A DNA stretch of 37,821 nucleotides, taken from Thermodesulfovibrionales bacterium. GTDB lineage: Bacteria; Nitrospirota; Thermodesulfovibrionia; Thermodesulfovibrionales; UBA6898. Both the position numbers and the translations under genes were made by a program. This document shows positions 2,584 through 14,236 of the stretch, one piece after another. Below the pieces are notes generated by a model. It was given only the letters and a program-made list of their open reading frames with translations. It was not told where the DNA came from and did not search any database. The DNA is taken from assembly GCA_044450345.1 (NCBI GenBank), contig JBIOIY010000029.1, positions 1 through 37,821 of the forward strand. Direction: 5' to 3'. How positions within the stretch are numbered: the stretch's first letter is position 1; every line of letters starts with the position of its first letter.

Positions 2584-2668
2584 GCCGAAGTGGTGGAACT
2601 GGTAGACACGCACGTTTGAGGGGCGTGTGGAGTAATCCATGCGGGTTCGAGTCCCGCCTTCGGCACCA
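2584..2668 (+). tRNA. tRNA-Leu(GAG)
   Basis: GCCGAAG/CTTCGGC acceptor stem, D-loop GGAACTGGTA, anticodon arm CACGT-TTGAGGG-GCGTG, long variable arm, GGTTCGAGTCC T-arm, encoded CCA. Confidence 0.97.
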
Positions 2669-2937
2669 TCTCCCTCTTTTAGAATCAATTAGTTGTCCCG
2701 CTGAAATCTTCAAAAAGACCATGAACAACCCGTGAACAGATGGAACTATCTACGATTGCGTATTTAGACCTAAAGGAACGATCCTAACTAACCCTCGTCT
2801 CCCATCTCGTTATAAAAGTGCATGTCTGAATGGTCGAGAGGCGGAGCGGCAGGGAGCAGGGACAGGAGTCGCTGAAATCTCATTGACACCTTCTCACAAA
2901 GTATCCAAGAAGTTATAGGCAGCACAGTAAAATCTTT

Positions 2938-3069
2938 ATGGTTATTTTCAGGAAAGCAGAACCTTCAGACTTCCCCATGATCCTGGCGTTACAGAAACAA
3001 AACCTAATTCAAAATCTTGCATTCCAAGACCAACAGGAAACAAAAAAAGAAGTCAGGGCAGAAGGATAA
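2938..3069 (+). pseudogene. truncated GNAT-family acetyltransferase N-terminus
   Basis: Translates to MVIFRKAEPSDFPMILALQKQNLIQNL..., a typical GNAT start (FRxAxxxDxxxILALQ), but stops after 43 aa. Confidence 0.55.
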
Positions 3070-3117
3070 TTTATCTCAGGCTGAAAAGTAATGTAATCTC
3101 AAAACAGTTAAAGGATA

Positions 3118-3312
3118 TTATCCATTTTGAATATACATTCTGCCAATTGAGGTCATTTCCATTTGAAGAAAGCGTCCTTGGAATGAGCTTGTCGGATTTA
3201 TGTTAGGTACCCTGATTTCCCGATTAGGAACCATAAAAATGTGTTGGACAGTATTCAAACGTTGTTCTACTGGGAAAACAATATTCATCTCAAGAAATTT
3301 TATATCGTCCAT
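3118..3312 (-). CDS. hypothetical 64-aa protein downstream of the SDH protease
   Basis: ATG-start ORF 24 nt after the protease stop, same strand and composition; no clear SD. Confidence 0.45.
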   Translation of the reverse strand: MDDIKFLEMNIVFPVEQRLNTVQHIFMVPNREIRVPNINPTSSFQGRFLQMEMTSIGRMYIQNG

Positions 3313-3336
3313 AATTATATATATACATATAAGTTC

Positions 3337-4602
3337 TTAAGCGTCAATCCATCCCAAAAATTCTGTCTGAGATTCAACACTTGTTTTTAGGTCTTTTAAA
3401 TCTATGTGTCCGGGAAGTCCATTGGCAAGGGCCGTAATTGAATTATAAGTATTATTACACTGGTCAACCAAAGTACTGAGCGGCTGAATTGATGGGTTTT
3501 TCATTTGTAACGAAACAAGACTTGCCCTCAAATTGGCAAATTCAGTTTGCATTTGTAACACCCCGGTTTTTATTGTCTCGCCCTGTCTTTTGTTGGTTTC
3601 CATAGTAAGCAACACCTGCAATCTGAAATTTGGATCAGGGATTAAGGCTTTCTTAATTTTTTGGCGAACTTTAAACTGCGATGAAAAGGAAGCACTCTCA
3701 ATCATAACAGGGTAAGTTTCCAAGATCTTTTCATCTTCATCTCCCAAGAAAGCATTAAGGTCAAAAAACTCCTTAAGTTTCATTTCAGTTTCATAATCTT
3801 GGTATAGATCTAATAAAAGTGTCTCTTCTTCGGGTGTTGCATCCTTGACAATATTATCAAGGCCGATAGACTCCCGTGCTTCATTTCTGGATATGCTATG
3901 GCTATGTGTATATAATCTTTCTGTTAATTCGTCCACAATTATATCTATACTCTTTTGGCCTTCTCCTTTTAGGTGTAACGAAAGCAACTTTCTTGCAAGA
4001 AGCCTGATTTGAGAATGAGACCTCTTCACATTCCCCAAGGCCAACGGATGAACTTTTTTTGCTAATATTTTGAATACCTCGGTAACATTCGCTTCTTTTT
4101 TTATTCCTATAGGATTGTCTTGAGCAAGCGAAACAAATGATGTCACATCCTCAACACTGATACCCAACGGCTGCTTCGTATTTTCATCCGTGGGATTAAA
4201 GAGGTTTGCAACTGTTGGATCAATTGGGCTTAGTGAGGCTATCCCGCACATTACAATTTCATCTGCACCCAATGAAACTAAAGTTGCAGCACTGTATGCA
4301 ATTACTGGCACTAAAACAGAAAAAGACTTGCAGTAGTTTCTGATAGCATTTACTAAGGGCCAGGCTGTACTGGTGTCTCCACCTCTGCTATGAAGGAATA
4401 AATCAATTTTCTCACAGTTGCTTTCCTTCGATATGGCCCTCAAATGTCTGATTATCTGATGTACTTGATCGGGTGCAATAGATGCTTGGATGCCCTGTAT
4501 GGGATTAGAGGCATACCTATCCGAAGTAACTAAAGTGATTACTTTACTTCCTCTTTTTTTCTCTATCGCTTGTATCAGTTTCTTCCTGTCGGCAAGACCC
4601 AT
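3337..4602 (-). CDS. SDH-family (serine dehydrogenase proteinase) Clp-fold serine protease
   Basis: DLFLHSRGGD, AYSAATLVSLGADEIVM, LSPIDP and LYTHSHSISR motifs; extra C-terminal helical segment. Confidence 0.85.
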   Translation of the reverse strand: MGLADRKKLIQAIEKKRGSKVITLVTSDRYASNPIQGIQASIAPDQVHQIIRHLRAISKESNCEKIDLFLHSRGGDTSTAWPLVNAIRNYCKSFSVLVPVIAYSAATLVSLGADEIVMCGIASLSPIDPTVANLFNPTDENTKQPLGISVEDVTSFVSLAQDNPIGIKKEANVTEVFKILAKKVHPLALGNVKRSHSQIRLLARKLLSLHLKGEGQKSIDIIVDELTERLYTHSHSISRNEARESIGLDNIVKDATPEEETLLLDLYQDYETEMKLKEFFDLNAFLGDEDEKILETYPVMIESASFSSQFKVRQKIKKALIPDPNFRLQVLLTMETNKRQGETIKTGVLQMQTEFANLRASLVSLQMKNPSIQPLSTLVDQCNNTYNSITALANGLPGHIDLKDLKTSVESQTEFLGWIDA

Positions 4603-4677
4603 ATCCGTTCTCTTAACGCTTTTTTTTCTCAGGTTTTATTCTTTATTAATCTCGGCAAGACCCCTTCAGACAAAGGA

Positions 4678-4707
4678 AGAATACACAAAATTAAAGACTG
4701 CCGTCAA
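4678..4707 (-). promoter_or_regulatory. putative sigma70 promoter of the SDH protease
   Basis: TTGACG-18 nt-TATTCT on the minus strand. Confidence 0.45.
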
Positions 4708-4993
4708 TAGGAAACCGTGGCTCAAAAGATTGATGAGTCGGTCAGGCTGGGGGAACTCTATAAATCTTTCCAAGGTTCGGGATTTTTACGGGGCTATGAA
4801 TGCAAACCTGAACTCGGTATTGAGTAATTCCAAACAATTTTGACATAAACACCCTTGAGAATTGGCTGTGGGCGCAAGGAAATTTAAGGAGGCGTCATGA
4901 GCGGCCTTCACAACCTCTTTTTTTTCTCTTTGAAACAATATGTCCTTTATAGTAAAATTGTTCGTCGCTACACATTTTTCAAGGAGGACCTCA

Positions 4994-5203
4994 ATGGAAA
5001 AGAAGCATAGGGTCGGCGGTGTCGCTTTTATATTGTTTTTAGTGTGTATAGTGGGAAGCATTGCCGCCAGTTTCAGCCTTCGGGAGATACTTCCCCATCT
5101 GAACAAATGGCAAAAGGGCGGGTATGCCATTGTCGGAGGGATTTTCATCGCGATGGCCGCTGTGATACTGAATGAAATGCTATCGTTCTTTCAGAACGAT
5201 TAA
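4994..5203 (+). CDS. small two-TM membrane protein
   Basis: SD AAGGAGG before ATG 4994; two hydrophobic segments. Confidence 0.7.
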   Translation: MEKKHRVGGVAFILFLVCIVGSIAASFSLREILPHLNKWQKGGYAIVGGIFIAMAAVILNEMLSFFQND

Positions 5204-5296
5204 CCCCCGGTTTTCGGGTTTCCCGCGCATTAGGCGTGCCTAAATATTTTTATGGGGAATGCTCCTCGGCCCGATCGCGCAAGGATGAGGATGTCG

Positions 5297-5707
5297 ATGA
5301 GATCACGGGTTGTAATTGTCGATTACTCCGTGATGTATTACAGGGGCGTTGTGAAGAAGGCCCTTCCGGCCGTGAGGAGCGGCAAGTTTGTTCAGGTAAG
5401 GCATGGCGATACTGAGTATATAGTCCTTTCCCCCAAGGAATACTGTCCTTACCATGCCGATATTCTTGAAAGGTTCTGCAGGGAGAGGTCCATCGAGGGG
5501 GCATATCAAGAGGGGAAAAAGCGTTTTGACATCCACGACGCCGAATGGATAATCCAGGGCGGGGGCAAGTTCGAGATCGATGAGACGAAGAGACATATCC
5601 GCTTCTATGACAACTCAATGGCATACGGGAGATTCGAGGAGAAGGGACTGGCGGAGAAGGTCCGTCAGACCGATATGCTGAAGGATTATAAGGTTACGGT
5701 CGAATAA
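5297..5707 (+). CDS. Janus/Ocnus (PHPT1-like 14-kDa phosphohistidine phosphatase) fold protein
   Basis: GKFV...YHADI...GGGKF...SMAYG...DYKVT, colinear with eukaryotic PHPT1 motifs as recalled; start could also be 5252, 5285 or 5291. Confidence 0.7.
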   Translation: MRSRVVIVDYSVMYYRGVVKKALPAVRSGKFVQVRHGDTEYIVLSPKEYCPYHADILERFCRERSIEGAYQEGKKRFDIHDAEWIIQGGGKFEIDETKRHIRFYDNSMAYGRFEEKGLAEKVRQTDMLKDYKVTVE

Positions 5708-5751
5708 CCGGCTGTCATACCGGCTTTTGAAAGACTGATTCCATCTGAATA

Positions 5752-6027
5752 ATGAAGAAAATAGAGTGTCGTAAAGGATGCGGGGCGTGCTGCATAGCCC
5801 CATCCATTTCATCTGCCATCCCGGGGATGCCGGTCGGCAAGCCTGCGGGAGTGAGATGCATTCATCTTTTGCCTGAGAATATCTGCGATATCCACGAAAG
5901 TCCGGAACGGCCGAAAACATGCCGGTCTTTTCAGGCGTCCGAGGAATGCTGCGGGAGGTCCCGGCAAGAGGCGATGGAACGTCTGTCAAGGCTTGAGATT
6001 TTGACCATAGAACCGATGGGCCCCTAA
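5752..6027 (+). CDS. YkgJ/UPF0153 cysteine-cluster (Zn/Fe-chelating) protein
   Basis: [28 protein letters not shown]. Confidence 0.9.
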
Positions 6028-6069
6028 AGTGGGCCATGCGAGGTATTTGCGACGTAAACAGCAGCTCCC

Positions 6070-8601
6070 ATGAAATCCTTCCCGATAGACGAGATACTTC
6101 CACAACTGAAAGACGCGGTCTCCCGTAACCCGTCGGTGGTCTTGCACGCCCCGCCCGGCGCAGGGAAGACGACCCGTGTTCCTCTGGCCCTGCTGGACAT
6201 ACTGCCTCCTGAAAAAGGGCGCATCATCATGCTGCAACCGCGGAGGATAGCCGCGGTTGCAGCGGCCCGGTGGATGGCAAGGGGCCTCGGGGAGGAGGCG
6301 GGTGAAACCGTGGGGTACTCGATCAGGTTCGACAGCAGGGTCTCGAAGAAGACACGTATCGAGGTCGTAACAGAAGGGATACTCACCCGCCGTATCCAGG
6401 CAGACCCCGGCCTCGAAGGGGTCTCTATGGTGATATTCGACGAATTCCATGAGAGGAGTCTTTATGCCGACCTCGCCCTCGCCCTCTGTCTCGATATCCG
6501 GCGCGGGGTCAGGGAGGACCTGAAGGTGCTTGTCATGTCGGCTACTCTCGATTGCGGCCCTATCTCTTCCCTCCTTGACGAGGCGCCGGTGATCTCGTCC
6601 GGAGGCAGGGTCTTTCCCGTTGAGGAGCATTATCTCGCCGACAAGACCCGGCCGCTTCCAGAACGCATTGCCGGCACTGTCGGTACAGCCTTGAGTGAGA
6701 CATCGGGAGACATCCTTATCTTTTTGCCAGGTGCCGGCGAGATACGCGCATGCAGTGAGGCGATCGAGAAGATGCCGGGCGTCCGGCGTGCGGGAATTAC
6801 CTTGCATCCTCTTTACGGCGACCTGCCCTTTGAAGAGCAGGAGCGTGCCATCCTTCCTTCGGAGAAACGAAAGATCGTTCTCGCCACAAACATCGCAGAG
6901 ACGAGCCTCACGATTGAAGGCGTGGGCGTCGTGATCGACAGCGGACTCACGAGAAGGCTTCAGCATGACCCCTCTACAGGCATGAACAGGCTCATTACCC
7001 TCTCTGTTTCGAAGGCATCCGCCGAACAGAGAAAGGGCAGGGCCGGCAGGCTCGGCCCGGGTGTCTGTTACCGCCTTTACGGCCGGAACGCCTTTCACGC
7101 GATGGTCCCTTTTGCCCCGCCCGAGATGTTTGTGTCGGACCTCTCCTCACTCGCCCTTGAACTTGCAGCATGGGGTGTGAAGGACCCCTCGGCCCTCTCG
7201 TGGCTCGATGAGCCGCCTGCAGTCGCCTGGGAGTCTGCTGTCAGGCTGCTTCAAGACCTCGGTGCGCTTGATAAGTCGGCCTCGGTCTCGTCTGCGGGTA
7301 GGAGAATGTGCCGGTTTCCCCTTCATCCGCGTCTCGCCCGGCTCATGCTGCGCGCTGAAGAACTCGGTTGCCTTCGCCTCGGCGCAGACCTCGCCGCCCT
7401 GCTTTCTGAAAGGGACGTACTCCGCCGTGGCATGTCGTCGGGCCGCATGGTACGCGATAGTGAACCTGATATCACTGCCAGGACCGATCTCCTGGGGCAG
7501 TGGCGTAAAGGAAGAGGGGCGCCTGATAACGCAGATCCCTGGGCATTAAGGTCGGTGGACAGGATTTCCGGGCAGCTGGTCGGTCTGATGCAGAGAACAT
7601 CGAAAGGCGCTGCTCAAGGGACAGCGGTTTCTGATGACATCTGCCGGTTGCTCCTTTGTGCATTTCCCGACAGGATTGCGCAGCTCCGCGAGGATGGAGA
7701 TGGACATTTTATACTTTCGCAGGGAAGGGGTGTGAGGCTGCCCTCAACAACGGGTCTCAGCAAAAGTCCTTACATAGTAGCGGTCAATGTTGATGCAGGA
7801 GAAAAGGCCGAAGGCATCGTGCATCTCGCTGCACCGCTTTCCGAAGAGCTCATCCGAAGGGAATTGAGCGGCCGCATCGAGCATGTAAGAAGGGTCGAGT
7901 GGGACAGGCGTGAAGAAAGGGTCATCGCAACAGTTGAAGAAAGAGTCGGCGCGGTTTTACTTTTATCCAGGCCTTTCACCCCATCGGACGAGGAGGCGCT
8001 GCCTATTCTCTGCGAGGCCATCAGCTCAAACCCCGGGATGCTCATCTTCAGTAAAGAGGCAAGACAGTTCCAGGGCCGGGTCGCCCTGATGCGAAGGACC
8101 TTCCCTGAAGAAGGTTGGCCCGTTCTTTCCGATGAGCATCTTCTCTCAAACCCAAAAGAATGGCTCCTGCCGTGGCTTCGGGGGCGGCGGAGCGGCCGGG
8201 ACATAAAGAATATGGATATGCTTCCGGCTCTTAAGGCCCTGTTTTCGTGGGAGAGGGCAAGGCTTCTCGAAGACCGCGCACCCTTAACAGTAGCTGTGCC
8301 GAGCGGACACCGTGTCGAGATCGATTATACCGTGGGAGACGTCCCGGTCCTTGCGGTGAAACTGCAGGAGATGTTCGGGCTTGCCGGCACCCCTGAAATC
8401 GCCGGAGGACGGGTAAAGGTACTGCTCCATCTTCTATCCCCGGCCCGCAGGCCTGTCCAGATCACGCAGGACCTGAAGGGGTTCTGGAACAGCGGCTACC
8501 AGCAGGTGAAGAAGGAATTAAAAGGCCGCTACCCGAAACATCCATGGCCGGATGACCCGTGGAACGCGGTACCCACGCGGAAGACGAAACGCAGGCTATG
8601 A
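6070..8601 (+). CDS. hrpB: ATP-dependent RNA helicase HrpB
   Basis: APPGAGKTT, DEFHER, MSAT, QRKGRAGR and the HrpB C-terminus (LLSPARRPVQIT, YPKHPWPDDP). Confidence 0.97.
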   Translation: MKSFPIDEILPQLKDAVSRNPSVVLHAPPGAGKTTRVPLALLDILPPEKGRIIMLQPRRIAAVAAARWMARGLGEEAGETVGYSIRFDSRVSKKTRIEVVTEGILTRRIQADPGLEGVSMVIFDEFHERSLYADLALALCLDIRRGVREDLKVLVMSATLDCGPISSLLDEAPVISSGGRVFPVEEHYLADKTRPLPERIAGTVGTALSETSGDILIFLPGAGEIRACSEAIEKMPGVRRAGITLHPLYGDLPFEEQERAILPSEKRKIVLATNIAETSLTIEGVGVVIDSGLTRRLQHDPSTGMNRLITLSVSKASAEQRKGRAGRLGPGVCYRLYGRNAFHAMVPFAPPEMFVSDLSSLALELAAWGVKDPSALSWLDEPPAVAWESAVRLLQDLGALDKSASVSSAGRRMCRFPLHPRLARLMLRAEELGCLRLGADLAALLSERDVLRRGMSSGRMVRDSEPDITARTDLLGQWRKGRGAPDNADPWALRSVDRISGQLVGLMQRTSKGAAQGTAVSDDICRLLLCAFPDRIAQLREDGDGHFILSQGRGVRLPSTTGLSKSPYIVAVNVDAGEKAEGIVHLAAPLSEELIRRELSGRIEHVRRVEWDRREERVIATVEERVGAVLLLSRPFTPSDEEALPILCEAISSNPGMLIFSKEARQFQGRVALMRRTFPEEGWPVLSDEHLLSNPKEWLLPWLRGRRSGRDIKNMDMLPALKALFSWERARLLEDRAPLTVAVPSGHRVEIDYTVGDVPVLAVKLQEMFGLAGTPEIAGGRVKVLLHLLSPARRPVQITQDLKGFWNSGYQQVKKELKGRYPKHPWPDDPWNAVPTRKTKRRL

Positions 8602-9093: not shown

Positions 9094-10743
9094 CTAAAAA
9101 CTAGTTCCTTTTTTTTTCTTCGGAAAGGATTTTGAAGAGGTGGCCTTCGCTTTTGTGACCGTTACCTTCCTTCCCCTGATGACCGCCCTGTTCATAGCGG
9201 TAATGACCTTTTCGACGATCCCGGAAGGTACCTCGAAGAACGTAAAATTGTCCATAATATCTATCTTTCCGACGCTCTTCCCGGGGATGCCTGCCTCGAC
9301 AGCGATTGACTTAAGTATTTCGGCGGTCTGGATCTTGTCTTTACGACCCAGGGTCATAAAGAGCCTGGTCATGCCTTTTTCGCCTGTCCCTTGTTGCCCG
9401 GTCCTTTTTTCACCGGCAGGCCGTGGCTGGTACTTCACGAGCTCAGGCACCTCCATGCTTCCGAATGCGATTGAAAGGGCCGCCGCTCCGAGTTCCTCTA
9501 TGTCGGCAGATTCGGCAAGCTCCCTGATAACGGCCATATAGGTCCTGTGGTTCCCCTTCTCTATGATCTCCGACAGGTCGGCTTTTATCTGTCTCTGGCG
9601 GGCCTTCCTGACCTCGGTAGCCGAAGGGACCTCCTGCCTGTCCAGTTTCGTCTTCGCGACCCTCTCTATCAGTTGTAGCTGACGGTATTCGCGGGGCGTC
9701 ACAAACGTGACCGCTATCCCTGTGCGCCCGGCCCTTCCGGTACGGCCGATCCTGTGGATATACCCTTCGGGGTTCTGGGGGATGCTGTAGTTGATGACAT
9801 GGCTGATATTTTCCACGTCTATACCCCTGCCTGCCACGTCGGTGGCGACGAGGATATCGACCCTGCCCTCCTTGAATTTCCCCATCATGTCTTCCCTGTG
9901 CGACTGGGTAAAGTCCCCGTGGAGGGCGCCCGCGTTATAGCCGAGTTTCTGCAGCCTGGCCGAGACGTCATCGACCTCTCTTTTGGTATGGCAGAAAATT
10001 AGCGTGCGTTCGGGCGACTCCACGTCGAGGAGCCTTCTCAGGACCTCGGGCTTGTCCCTTTCGAGCACCTCGTAAAACACCTGTTTGATCTTGGGTGCTA
10101 TGATGTCTTCTACGTTGATCGCGATCTTGATCGGATCGCGCATGTGTCTCTTTGAGATCTTGAGGATCTCGGGGGGCATTGTGGCCGAGTACAGCATTGT
10201 CTGCCTCGTTGCGGGGGTCATATCGAGTATCTTTTCGATGTCGACGATAAACCCCATGTCGAGCATTTCATCGGCCTCGTCGAGAACAACTGTCGAAACG
10301 CTCCCCACGGACATCGTCCCTCTGTTAAGATGGTCGAGGATACGTCCCGGTGTCCCGACTACGATATTAGTGCCCTGCCGGAGGGCCTTCATCTGATCTA
10401 CTATCGATGCGCCCCCGTAGACCGTCAGGATCGAACACTTCTTGTATTTCGAGAGTGAGCTTAATTCTTCTGAAACCTGGAGGGCCAGTTCGCGAGTGGG
10501 TTCTATGATGAGGGCAGAGGGTTTCTTGCCGGAGAAATTCTTTTCGATGATCGGGATGCCGAAGGACGCGGTCTTGCCCGTGCCTGTCTGTGCCTGACCG
10601 ATTATGTCGCGGCCTTCGAGCGCATGGGGTATGGTCAATTCCTGGATCGGCGTCGGCTCCTCAAAACCCATCTCGCTGATCGCCTTGATCACAGCCGGAC
10701 TCAGGTTCAGGTCGTTAAAACTTCCTGTCACTTTTTTTTCCAA
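9094..10743 (-). CDS. DEAD-box RNA helicase (CsdA/CshA type, DbpA RNA-binding domain)
   Basis: Q-motif, AQTGTGKT, PTRELA, DEAD, SAT, HRIGRTGR and a C-terminal DbpA-type domain; TTG start with SD AAAGGAG. Confidence 0.95.
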   Translation of the reverse strand: MEKKVTGSFNDLNLSPAVIKAISEMGFEEPTPIQELTIPHALEGRDIIGQAQTGTGKTASFGIPIIEKNFSGKKPSALIIEPTRELALQVSEELSSLSKYKKCSILTVYGGASIVDQMKALRQGTNIVVGTPGRILDHLNRGTMSVGSVSTVVLDEADEMLDMGFIVDIEKILDMTPATRQTMLYSATMPPEILKISKRHMRDPIKIAINVEDIIAPKIKQVFYEVLERDKPEVLRRLLDVESPERTLIFCHTKREVDDVSARLQKLGYNAGALHGDFTQSHREDMMGKFKEGRVDILVATDVAGRGIDVENISHVINYSIPQNPEGYIHRIGRTGRAGRTGIAVTFVTPREYRQLQLIERVAKTKLDRQEVPSATEVRKARQRQIKADLSEIIEKGNHRTYMAVIRELAESADIEELGAAALSIAFGSMEVPELVKYQPRPAGEKRTGQQGTGEKGMTRLFMTLGRKDKIQTAEILKSIAVEAGIPGKSVGKIDIMDNFTFFEVPSGIVEKVITAMNRAVIRGRKVTVTKAKATSSKSFPKKKKGTSF

Positions 10744-12217: not shown

Positions 12218-14236
12218 TCAATCTCCGAGGATAGTCTTTATGTTGGCGAAGAACTTCTTCGCATGGACCTTTTCCTGCTCCGGGGTCAGCTTTTCGAATC
12301 GGTCGACTTTTTTGACCGCATCTTCCGGTATTTCATCAAGGAACCTGGAGGGAACAGAAGGCTGCTCCTTACCGTACTTGGACCTGTGGTCCGTGTAGGT
12401 AATATAAAGTTCGTTCATAGCCCTCGTGATCCCAACGTAAAAGAGCCTTCTTTCCTCTTCGATCCCTTCACTCGTGTGAACCGATTTCTTGTGGGGCAAT
12501 ATCTCATCCTCCACGCCGACGATGAAGACGACGGGAAATTCCAGTCCCTTCGAAGAATGAAATGATATGAGGATGACGCCCCGTCCGCTCTCTTCCTCCT
12601 TCTCCTCGATCAGATCGGTCAGGGCCATCGTCTCAAGGAACCCGTGAAGTGAAGGCGAGTTTTCAGAGGATTCATAATGGGTTATGGAATCGACGAACCC
12701 ATCGAGGTTTTCTATCTTCCTGAACGCAACCTCAGGCGTCTTATAAAGCTCGCTGATATAGTCCCGGTAATTGATCTCTTCGATGAGAAGTCTGAGGGTC
12801 TTGCCCATCTCCCGGCCCTTCTTGAATATATCTCGATAACGCCCGATCAGCGCTGAAAGCGCTGCTGCCGAAGAAGCCGCCTTTTGTCCTATGCCGGGGA
12901 TGGTGGATGCCCTCCCAAATGCATCGAGAAGGCTCAAAGAATTCTTACTGCTGAAATCGGATAGCATACCGAGTGCCGAAGGCCCCAACCCCTTCTTCGG
13001 CGCGCTGGCCGCCCGCAGGAGGCTGAGGTCGTCCGAGGGGTTTGCGATGATCTTCAGATAAGCCGCAAGGTCCTTGATCTCCTTGTGTTCGAAATAGCTT
13101 GTGCCGCCGACGACAGAATAAGGGATGCGTTTTCTCCTCAGGGCCTCCTCGAAGGGCCTTGAAAAGAGGTTCGCCCTGTAGATGACCGCAAAATCTTCGC
13201 AGGGATTATTCCTCTCAAACTGTATCATCGAGATTTTGTCGGCCACCCAGGCGGCCTCATCCTCCGTGTCAATCGCCTTAAAGATATTGACCTTCGGGCC
13301 TTCTCCTCTCGCGGTCCAGAGGGATTTTTCCATTCTCTTCCTGTTGTTCATTATCACGCCGTTTGCGGCCTTGAGGATATGCCCGAAGGAACGGTAGTTC
13401 TGTTCGAGCCTCACCGTCACTGTGCCGGGAAAATCCCTCTCGAAGTCAAGGATGTTGCCCAGGTTTGCGCCTCTCCATCCATAAATGGACTGGTCGTCGT
13501 CGCCCACCACGCAGAGGTTCTTTCTGTCGCCCGCAAGAAGTTTGATGAAATCATACTGGACGCGGTTCGTGTCCTGGTACTCGTCGACCATGATGTACCT
13601 GAACCTCTCCCTGTATCTTTCGAGGACGGCAGGATGTTCCCTGAAGAGTTTTAAAGTGAGCAGGAGCAGGTCGTCGAAGTCGAGTGCGTTCAGCGATTTC
13701 AGTGCCTCCAGATAGCGGGGATAGATCATCGCCGAGGCCTCTTCTATCGGATCGTCTGCCGATGCGGGCTCCGGAGGGGTAAAATCGTTCTTTGTCCTGC
13801 TTATCTTTTCCAGGATCGATTCGGCCTTGAAGCTCTTGTCATAGAATTTGATGTCCGACAGGATGTTCCGGAGGAGGGAAACCTGCTCCGAGGCGTCGTA
13901 GATCGTGAAGTCCTTCCGGTACCCGAGATGTTCGATCTCTCTCCTGAGTATCCTGAGACAGAGGGAATGGAAGGTAGATATGACCGGTGTCCCCTCCCCC
14001 CCTCTCACCATCGACTTTACCCTTTGCTGCATCTCTCTGGCGGCCTTGTTCGTAAAGGTGACCGCCAGGACCGATCCCGCCCTGACTCCCTTATGTATAA
14101 GATAGGCGGTCCTCATCGTGATAACCCGTGTCTTTCCCGAGCCTGCCCCCGCCAGGATGAGGAGAGGGCCGTCGATATGCATGACCGCTTCCTTCTGCCT
14201 TGGGTTAAGACGCGCAATTGCCTTATATATATCCAT
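12218..14236 (-). CDS. UvrD/Rep/PcrA superfamily-1 DNA helicase
   Basis: LAGAGSGKT, FTNKAA, VDEYQD, GDDDQSIYGWRGA, HSSKGLEF, EERRLFYVGITRA. Confidence 0.96.
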   Translation of the reverse strand: MDIYKAIARLNPRQKEAVMHIDGPLLILAGAGSGKTRVITMRTAYLIHKGVRAGSVLAVTFTNKAAREMQQRVKSMVRGGEGTPVISTFHSLCLRILRREIEHLGYRKDFTIYDASEQVSLLRNILSDIKFYDKSFKAESILEKISRTKNDFTPPEPASADDPIEEASAMIYPRYLEALKSLNALDFDDLLLLTLKLFREHPAVLERYRERFRYIMVDEYQDTNRVQYDFIKLLAGDRKNLCVVGDDDQSIYGWRGANLGNILDFERDFPGTVTVRLEQNYRSFGHILKAANGVIMNNRKRMEKSLWTARGEGPKVNIFKAIDTEDEAAWVADKISMIQFERNNPCEDFAVIYRANLFSRPFEEALRRKRIPYSVVGGTSYFEHKEIKDLAAYLKIIANPSDDLSLLRAASAPKKGLGPSALGMLSDFSSKNSLSLLDAFGRASTIPGIGQKAASSAAALSALIGRYRDIFKKGREMGKTLRLLIEEINYRDYISELYKTPEVAFRKIENLDGFVDSITHYESSENSPSLHGFLETMALTDLIEEKEEESGRGVILISFHSSKGLEFPVVFIVGVEDEILPHKKSVHTSEGIEEERRLFYVGITRAMNELYITYTDHRSKYGKEQPSVPSRFLDEIPEDAVKKVDRFEKLTPEQEKVHAKKFFANIKTILGD

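Follow-up and report, generated by a model that had tools for sequence, protein, structure and literature searches.

A bacterial member of the PHPT1/Janus/Ocnus family and candidate phosphohistidine phosphatase from an uncultured Nitrospirota genome

Results

The locus and the PHPT1-like gene

The window, by which we mean the whole 37,821-nucleotide stretch of DNA analysed here, is the entire contig 29 of a 3.19-Mb genome that is 91% complete in 86 contigs. The source organism is an uncultured sulfur-cycling soil bacterium. A gene for a PHPT1/Janus-family protein lies within a run of plus-strand genes from 4940 to 8601, in which the gaps are 40-95 nt long (Table 1). Elsewhere in the window, three sulfur-relay genes (DsrH and two DsrE/F-like) fit a sulfur-cycling member of the Nitrospirota, and three helicase genes, of the HrpB, DeaD/DbpA and UvrD/Rep types, are found within 8 kb. 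A tRNA-Leu(GAG) is followed by a low-GC stretch (0.36-0.41 within 2584-5000, versus 0.50-0.61 in the flanks), which looks like an islet inserted beside the tRNA. This stretch encodes a 421-aa SDH-type ClpP-like serine protease (PF01972, E 1.9e-19) that is without counterpart in the 73 related loci and gave no match in PADLOC.

Table 1. Coordinates of the genes and sequence features in the window
Feature	Position	Strand	Remarks
DsrH (sulfur relay)	231-527
DsrE/F-like (sulfur relay)	537-896
DsrE/F-like (sulfur relay)	889-1308
tRNA-Leu(GAG)	2584-2668		beside low-GC stretch
SDH-type ClpP-like serine protease	3337-4602	-	421 aa
Small membrane protein	4940..5203	+	87 aa; directly upstream of the PHPT1-like gene
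GAGGA, Shine-Dalgarno-like	5287..5291	+	5 nt ahead of the ATG at 5297; predicted from the sequence
PHPT1/Janus-family protein	5297..5707	+	136 aa; stop codon included
Alternative starts of the PHPT1-like gene	5291 or 5252	+	138 aa or 151 aa
G29-K30-F31-V32 codons	5381..5392	+
Y52-H53-A54-D55-I56 codons	5450..5464	+	H53 at 5453-5455
G88-G89-G90-K91 codons	5558..5569	+
S107-M108-A109-Y110-G111 codons	5615..5629	+
CxxCxxCC protein (PF03692), putative Zn/Fe-chelating	5752..6027	+	91 aa; 44 nt downstream of the PHPT1-like gene
HrpB-type DEAH helicase	6070..8601	+	downstream, after the CxxCxxCC gene
DeaD/DbpA-type helicase	9094-10743	-
UvrD/Rep-type helicase	12218-14236	-

Translation of 5297-5704 on the plus strand gave 136 residues with no internal stop. 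The initial annotation had described the motifs GKFV, YHADI, GGGK, SMAYG and DYKVT, in this order, in a protein of about 136 residues, and the translation confirmed this; the fifth motif (D130-Y131-K132-V133-T134) is the one nearest the C-terminus. The open frame on the same strand spans 5252 to 5707 and would accommodate 151 aa. Members of the family are mostly 134-138 aa long, with an N-terminus that lies 2-6 residues ahead of an IDYS motif. Since the GAGGA sequence is placed 5 nt ahead of the ATG at 5297, the start was assigned to 5297, possibly 5291, and the 151-aa form probably extends too far upstream. The dN/dS between the gene and its nearest orthologue (77% identical) was 0.11 at a dS of 1.15, pairs more distant than this one being saturated. 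The PHPT1-like gene is real and is under purifying selection.

A search of Rfam with 4700-6100 returned nothing below E 0.8, and the RNA fold of 5125-5300 was no better than that of shuffled sequences (z 0.72). In a consensus promoter/terminator scan the counts were near the shuffle expectation; the single strong promoter-like site sits within the PHPT1-like gene. Two runs of one peat metatranscriptome study yielded one short contig each, at 5048-5238 (191 nt) and 5125-5264 (160 nt), both 95-99% alike to the window and one with adaptor-like ends. Both are confined to the spacer ahead of the PHPT1-like gene and the 3' end of the preceding small membrane-protein gene. No RNA contig was found on the PHPT1-like gene proper, which, for assembled contigs of small runs, is uninformative on expression either way.

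Sequence homology to PHPT1

The window protein matched the Pfam Ocnus family (PF05005) at 34.3 bits (E 2.6e-8), passing the curated gathering cut-off of 23, over residues 36-124 and profile positions 28-102 of 108. The same profile was matched at E<=1e-3 by 67 of 91 relatives, the best of the 91 reaching E 2.3e-9. The Drosophila proteins Janus A/B and Ocnus, which occur in the insect testis and have no known biochemical activity, belong to this Pfam family as well. Neither NCBIfam nor PADLOC holds a family for the window protein.

When the single window sequence was searched against the PDB, human PHPT1 was found at no better than E 0.17, yet in an alignment that pairs YHADI with YHADI, GGGK with GGGR, SMAYG with SMAYG and DYKVT with DYEVT (window and human protein, respectively). 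With a profile built from 91 sequences, three distinct PHPT1 sequences were found at E 2.1e-6 to 3.2e-6 and the next match lay at E 0.12, and a profile from 23 closer relatives found PHPT1 at E 5e-5. YHADI, GGG and SMAYG were aligned with the identical human motifs in both the single-sequence and the profile searches. The human motifs that the initial annotation had quoted (YHADI, GGGR, SMAYG and DYEVT) are indeed present in the PHPT1 chains of the PDB. It had also set the protein apart from SixA, and the window protein matched neither SixA nor the His_Phos family in Pfam (E<=1) or NCBIfam; the two are unrelated.

Predicted fold

The AlphaFold2 model computed from a 91-row alignment had a pLDDT of 96.8 and a pTM of 0.90. 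In a Foldseek search of the PDB, the sole five matches at E<=0.001 were PHPT1 chains (E 1.9e-7 to 5.3e-6, TM 0.54-0.76), and the next match stood at E 0.18. Similar results were obtained with VIA-align: the model was superimposed on 2nmm_C with a Z of 12.1 and an rmsd of 2.4 Å over 100 aligned residues of 26% identity, the Z values for 2hw4 and 2ai6 were 11.6 and 10.0, and the best unrelated chain reached a Z of 2.8. PHPT1 is reported to fold as a beta-sheet flanked by two helices, unlike other phosphatases (PMC4817053). That the model matches only PHPT1 in the PDB supports the Janus fold. The proposal of a bacterial PHPT1 homologue is thus upheld by the family profile, by the fold and by the catalytic His, Ser and GGG residues; on the sequence profiles and the predicted model together, we regard homology to PHPT1 and a shared fold as settled.

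Human PHPT1 (PDB 2HW4, 2NMM, 2AI6/2OZW/2OZX) is, like the window protein, a single-domain protein of similar size with the same order of motifs, and the two are 20-26% identical. From its first helix to the GGG strand the window protein is 13 residues longer than the human chain, and the model folds the added segment as a beta-hairpin (68-79); it differs further by a modelled N-terminal strand and helix at 4-18.

Active-site residues

The catalytic site of human PHPT1 is reported to consist of Lys21, His53, Ala54, Arg78, Ser94 and Ala96, and its substrate-binding residues are given as Glu51, Tyr52, His53, Tyr93 and Met95 (PMC4817053); His102 has been reported as important for activity (PMC11277029). 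We counted conservation at these positions in the 91-sequence alignment, in which the mean column identity is 26%. H53, G88, G89, S107 and G111 were invariant in all 91 relatives. H53 is aligned with the human catalytic His53 and is presumed, by analogy, to be the general base; S107 is aligned with human Ser94. G90, the third Gly of the GGG turn, was found in 85 of 91 relatives, A54 (human Ala54) in 79 and A109 (human Ala96) in 74, and K30, F31 and Y110 in 87, 87 and 88, respectively. K30 is likely the counterpart of human Lys21, judging from its order in the sequence and from the structurally aligned range (model 6-136 versus human chain 11-121), which includes it. The conservation of H53, S107, the GGG turn and the Ala54 and Ala96 positions indicates that the phosphate-binding core and the general base have been kept.

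Other parts of the site have changed. The position of Arg78 is occupied by Lys91 in the window protein and by K in 25, H in 20, R in 12 and M in 9 of the 91 relatives. A count over 150 cluster representatives gave a comparable picture: the residue after GGG was H at 31, R at 25 and K at 20 of 133 GGG sites. Human His102 is aligned, in an ungapped stretch, with Glu115, at a position where the relatives vary (L 17, R 14, S 13 and P 12 of 91). Glu51 is replaced by Pro51 and Tyr93 by Asn106. Tyr52 is kept together with the whole Ser-Met-Ala-Tyr-Gly segment, although its Met108 is common to just 22 of 91 relatives. On the aligned sequences, then, the bacterial family does not conserve Arg78, and His102 is without counterpart. 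The match in order, size and key residues that the initial annotation had drawn with the human protein therefore stands for the motifs and for His53 and Ser94. Its replacement of R78 by K is also correct, but the position is not a conserved one, and the match does not extend to His102.

Distribution of the family

Among 5.8 billion proteins, a word-seeded search picked out 80 candidates, of which 76 were relatives at E<=1e-3. All 76 are unnamed or named hypothetical, and 67 had been flagged beforehand as PF05005. A profile search of the same set raised the number of relatives to 338, a few of them labelled 'Janus/Ocnus family (Ocnus)' by JGI. An exhaustive phmmer search of 1.84 billion cluster representatives found 279 clusters at E<=1e-3, 116 at E<=1e-10 and 6 at E<=1e-30. 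The window protein is also present in the ESM Atlas, where the nearest cluster, possibly its own, has 343 members, mostly from Nitrospirota, and carries the automatic name 'Janus/Ocnus family (Ocnus) domain-containing protein'. The 14 pattern matches on viral contigs included no relative. One distant cluster representative (P0218, 278 aa) has an N-terminal extension of 148 residues ahead of the PHPT1-like domain, and the members of its branch have GGC in place of GGG.

Collections with one genome per species contained 73 loci with a PHPT1-like gene. The titles of 66 are of Nitrospirota type (Nitrospirae/Nitrospirota/Nitrospiraceae, Thermodesulfovibrionales, Thermodesulfovibrio, Ca. Sulfobium and Ca. 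Magnetobacteriaceae), five read Ca. Zixiibacteriota, one 'uncultured bacterium' and one 'Betaproteobacteria'. The last (L035, 'Betaproteobacteria bacterium') shares its gene order, two permeases, the PHPT1-like gene, YceG and an ABC1-like gene, with about 15 Nitrospirota-titled loci; its title is probably a matter of labelling or binning. The closest titled relatives come from an uncultured Nitrospiraceae MAG (77%) and from Ca. Sulfobium mesophilum (68%). By whole-genome search the gene was present in 24 of 41 related genomes. Across the host phylum it was carried by 54 of 301 sampled genomes, concentrated in the order of the window and in one other family (30/64), and in the phylum of a Zixiibacteriota-titled genome by 66 of 151. 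Within the order of the window, one genus carried it in 1 of 11 genomes. None of 14 well-known control genomes had it. Peat and soil DNA metagenomes from two studies contained contigs, 95-99% alike to the window, that span 4818-6300 and 5029-6300.

Gene neighbourhood

We compared the neighbourhoods of 74 loci (the window and L014-L086) using a gene caller of our own, followed by BLAST clustering at 70% mutual coverage. Each locus has one copy of the PHPT1-like gene in 73 of 74 cases, none having been called in L080. The small membrane protein is found upstream in 6 loci and HrpB adjoins in 4 (the window, L014, L015 and L019), in both cases all close relatives. In another clade, of 16-20 loci, two ABC permease genes are followed by the PHPT1-like gene and then, on the other strand, by YceG and an ABC1-kinase-like gene, and in the Zixibacteria-titled loci an MFS transporter stands before the gene and the 20-kDa subunit of NADH dehydrogenase after it. 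Among the 74 loci no neighbour was conserved across clades of the family, and the context therefore names no partner.

Several apparent associations did not survive inspection. What seemed to be tandem paralogues came from an ABC permease that single linkage had joined to the family cluster as a 'second copy'. The conserved '106-aa genes' upstream in about 18 loci of one clade (e.g. L047, 1581-1901) are translated tRNA genes; such tRNA-derived pseudo-proteins, of the GGSRTHDL...PTELR type, are a trap for ORF-based neighbourhood counts. A GGDEF gene seemed to lie near 16 of 73 loci, but at 70% mutual coverage the largest GGDEF cluster comprised 3 loci. The sole longer match among 7999 scored candidates, a seemingly fused form of 422 aa, has a linker that resembles a wrong-frame translation running from a permease into the PHPT1-like gene. 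As for the small membrane protein, it is a two-helix protein, a second copy of which lies downstream in 3 of its 6 loci; it has a sub-threshold match to NCBIfam SLATT_4 (E 5.4e-4, 19.8 bits versus a cut-off of 55).

Candidate substrates and SixA in the genome

The host genome has 46 HisKA matches, 44 of them over the cut-off, together with 5 Hpt domains and 1 NDK. HPr was not found in it, nor was SixA (TIGR00249) at E<=0.001, absences that are not proof in a genome 91% complete. SixA was over the cut-off in 13 of the 41 related genomes. Counted by hand, 7 of the 41 have both SixA and the PHPT1-like gene, 17 the PHPT1-like gene only, 6 SixA only and 11 neither; the presence of one is unrelated to that of the other, and we dropped the ideas of replacement and of partnership. 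The initial annotation had suggested two-component and PTS proteins as targets. With no HPr found in the 91%-complete genome, a PTS target is unlikely. A two-component target is possible in a genome with this number of HisKA matches, as is an Hpt or NDK target. Given the many two-component kinases, and with neither SixA nor HPr found, histidine kinases, Hpt domains or NDK would be the most likely protein targets. The gene surroundings of the 74 loci and the search for longer forms point to no particular target.

Discussion

A proposed function by analogy with human PHPT1

The window protein is a stand-alone, single-domain bacterial member of the Janus/Ocnus family. What, then, would such a protein do? 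In human PHPT1, His53 is reported to act as the general base that activates water, and hydrolysis is direct, with no phospho-enzyme (PMC11277029). The same source reports that the human enzyme acts on bacterial CheA in vitro and dephosphorylates chemically phosphorylated polylysine and histone H1.2 (PMC11277029). Insensitivity to vanadate and okadaate is a further property expected of phosphohistidine hydrolysis in this family. Reasoning by analogy with this enzyme, we infer the catalysis, the N-P specificity and the kind of target. The reading that we favour, with reasonable rather than high confidence, is a His53-dependent hydrolysis of N-P bonds, probably those of phosphohistidine in proteins. 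In this mechanism His53, located where the first long helix begins, would serve as general base and activate a water molecule, which would attack the phosphorus of the N-P (phosphoramidate) bond, most likely of a protein phosphohistidine. The phosphate would be held by the hydroxyl of Ser107 and by backbone NH groups around His53/Ala54 and Ala109, with the basic side chains of Lys30 and Lys91 also contributing, and no phospho-enzyme intermediate would be formed.

SixA may do the same job, that is, the dephosphorylation of phosphohistidine, by other means. It belongs to the histidine phosphatase superfamily with its RHG motif, has a fold unrelated to that of the window protein and works through a phospho-enzyme intermediate. 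SixA is reported to act on NPr and Ndk (PMC7948535, PMC12934123), and in the papers considered here it is the only phosphohistidine phosphatase of bacteria for which an in-vivo target has been proposed (PMC7948535).

Alternative readings

The fold and the His-dependent hydrolysis could be the same with a different substrate: phospho-Lys or phospho-Arg in proteins, or else a small metabolite phosphorylated on nitrogen, for example phosphoramidate or an N-phospho amino acid. The activity of human PHPT1 on phosphorylated polylysine and histone H1.2 (PMC11277029) speaks for such a substrate, and so do the loss of the human peptide-binding residues Glu51 and Tyr93, the variation at the Arg78 position, the lack of a signalling gene as a conserved neighbour and the ABC-transporter permease genes that the gene follows in one clade. 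Against such a substrate, this permease neighbourhood is limited to that one clade (16-17 of 74 loci) and lies amid housekeeping genes, and the window protein shares its phosphate-binding core with the protein phosphatase. These bacteria are, moreover, not known to have a pathway for N-phospho metabolites. On balance, we consider a substrate other than protein phosphohistidine unlikely.

Lower still is the probability that the protein shares the fold without being a catalyst and serves in binding or regulation, in the manner of insect Janus and Ocnus. In favour of such a role, the Drosophila proteins that gave the family its name have no known activity, neither His102 nor Arg78 is conserved, and the similarity to the Pfam family is weak (E 2.3e-9 for the best of 91 members). 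Set against this, His53, Ser107 and two of the three Gly residues of the GGG turn are invariant in 91 sequences that are only about 26% identical per column. Such invariance is the pattern expected of an active site and not of a scaffold.

That the family was first known from animals might suggest that eukaryotic DNA had contaminated the assembly or that the gene had recently been acquired from a eukaryote. We find this explanation extremely improbable: the same 37.8-kb contig carries bacterial genes (DsrE/F/H-like, tRNA-Leu, HrpB, DeaD and UvrD), two DNA metagenome runs of different studies contain contigs over 4818-6300 and 5029-6300 at 95-99% likeness, relatives are present in 24 of 41 related genomes and in 54 of the 301 sampled from the phylum, and the protein is only 20-26% identical to human PHPT1, from which its 13-residue insertion also sets it apart.

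Place of the bacterial proteins in the family

The family had been taken at the outset as generally regarded as eukaryotic, and this agrees with the literature on phosphohistidine phosphatases, in which the reviews and papers considered here treat PHPT1 as mammalian or animal, without mention of bacterial members, and SixA as the bacterial enzyme (PMC7461546, PMC11277029, PMC7948535, PMC9724660). A search of the full-text literature, with subscription journals mostly outside its scope, found no paper on bacterial or prokaryotic PHPT1/Janus members and no activity data for them. The term 'undescribed', which the initial annotation had applied to the family, holds in this sense only, for JGI and the ESM Atlas already attach the Janus/Ocnus label automatically. 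The window protein is thus an uncharacterised new member of a known family, of a kind that pipelines label and that the literature has left without study. The value of the finding is tempered by this existing label and by the fact that no target can be named.

Phosphorylation of histidine in proteins lies at the heart of bacterial signalling, and two uncultured bacterial phyla commonly carry a well-conserved protein of the PHPT1 type. With dozens of histidine kinases in its genome and SixA not detected there, the window protein is a concrete and cheap candidate for a second class of bacterial phosphohistidine phosphatase. In a bolder version, to which we assign only a low probability, PHPT1-type enzymes would be an old prokaryotic invention from which the eukaryotic enzyme descended, and in Thermodesulfovibrionales-type Nitrospirota and in Zixibacteria they would reset histidine kinases, Hpt relays or NDK as a phosphohistidine phosphatase independent of SixA. 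The family supplies the prokaryotic sequences that are needed to ask about the origin of eukaryotic PHPT1. If the bolder version is true, bacteria would possess a second, mechanistically different class of phosphohistidine phosphatase, one that uses a His-activated water and forms no phospho-enzyme.
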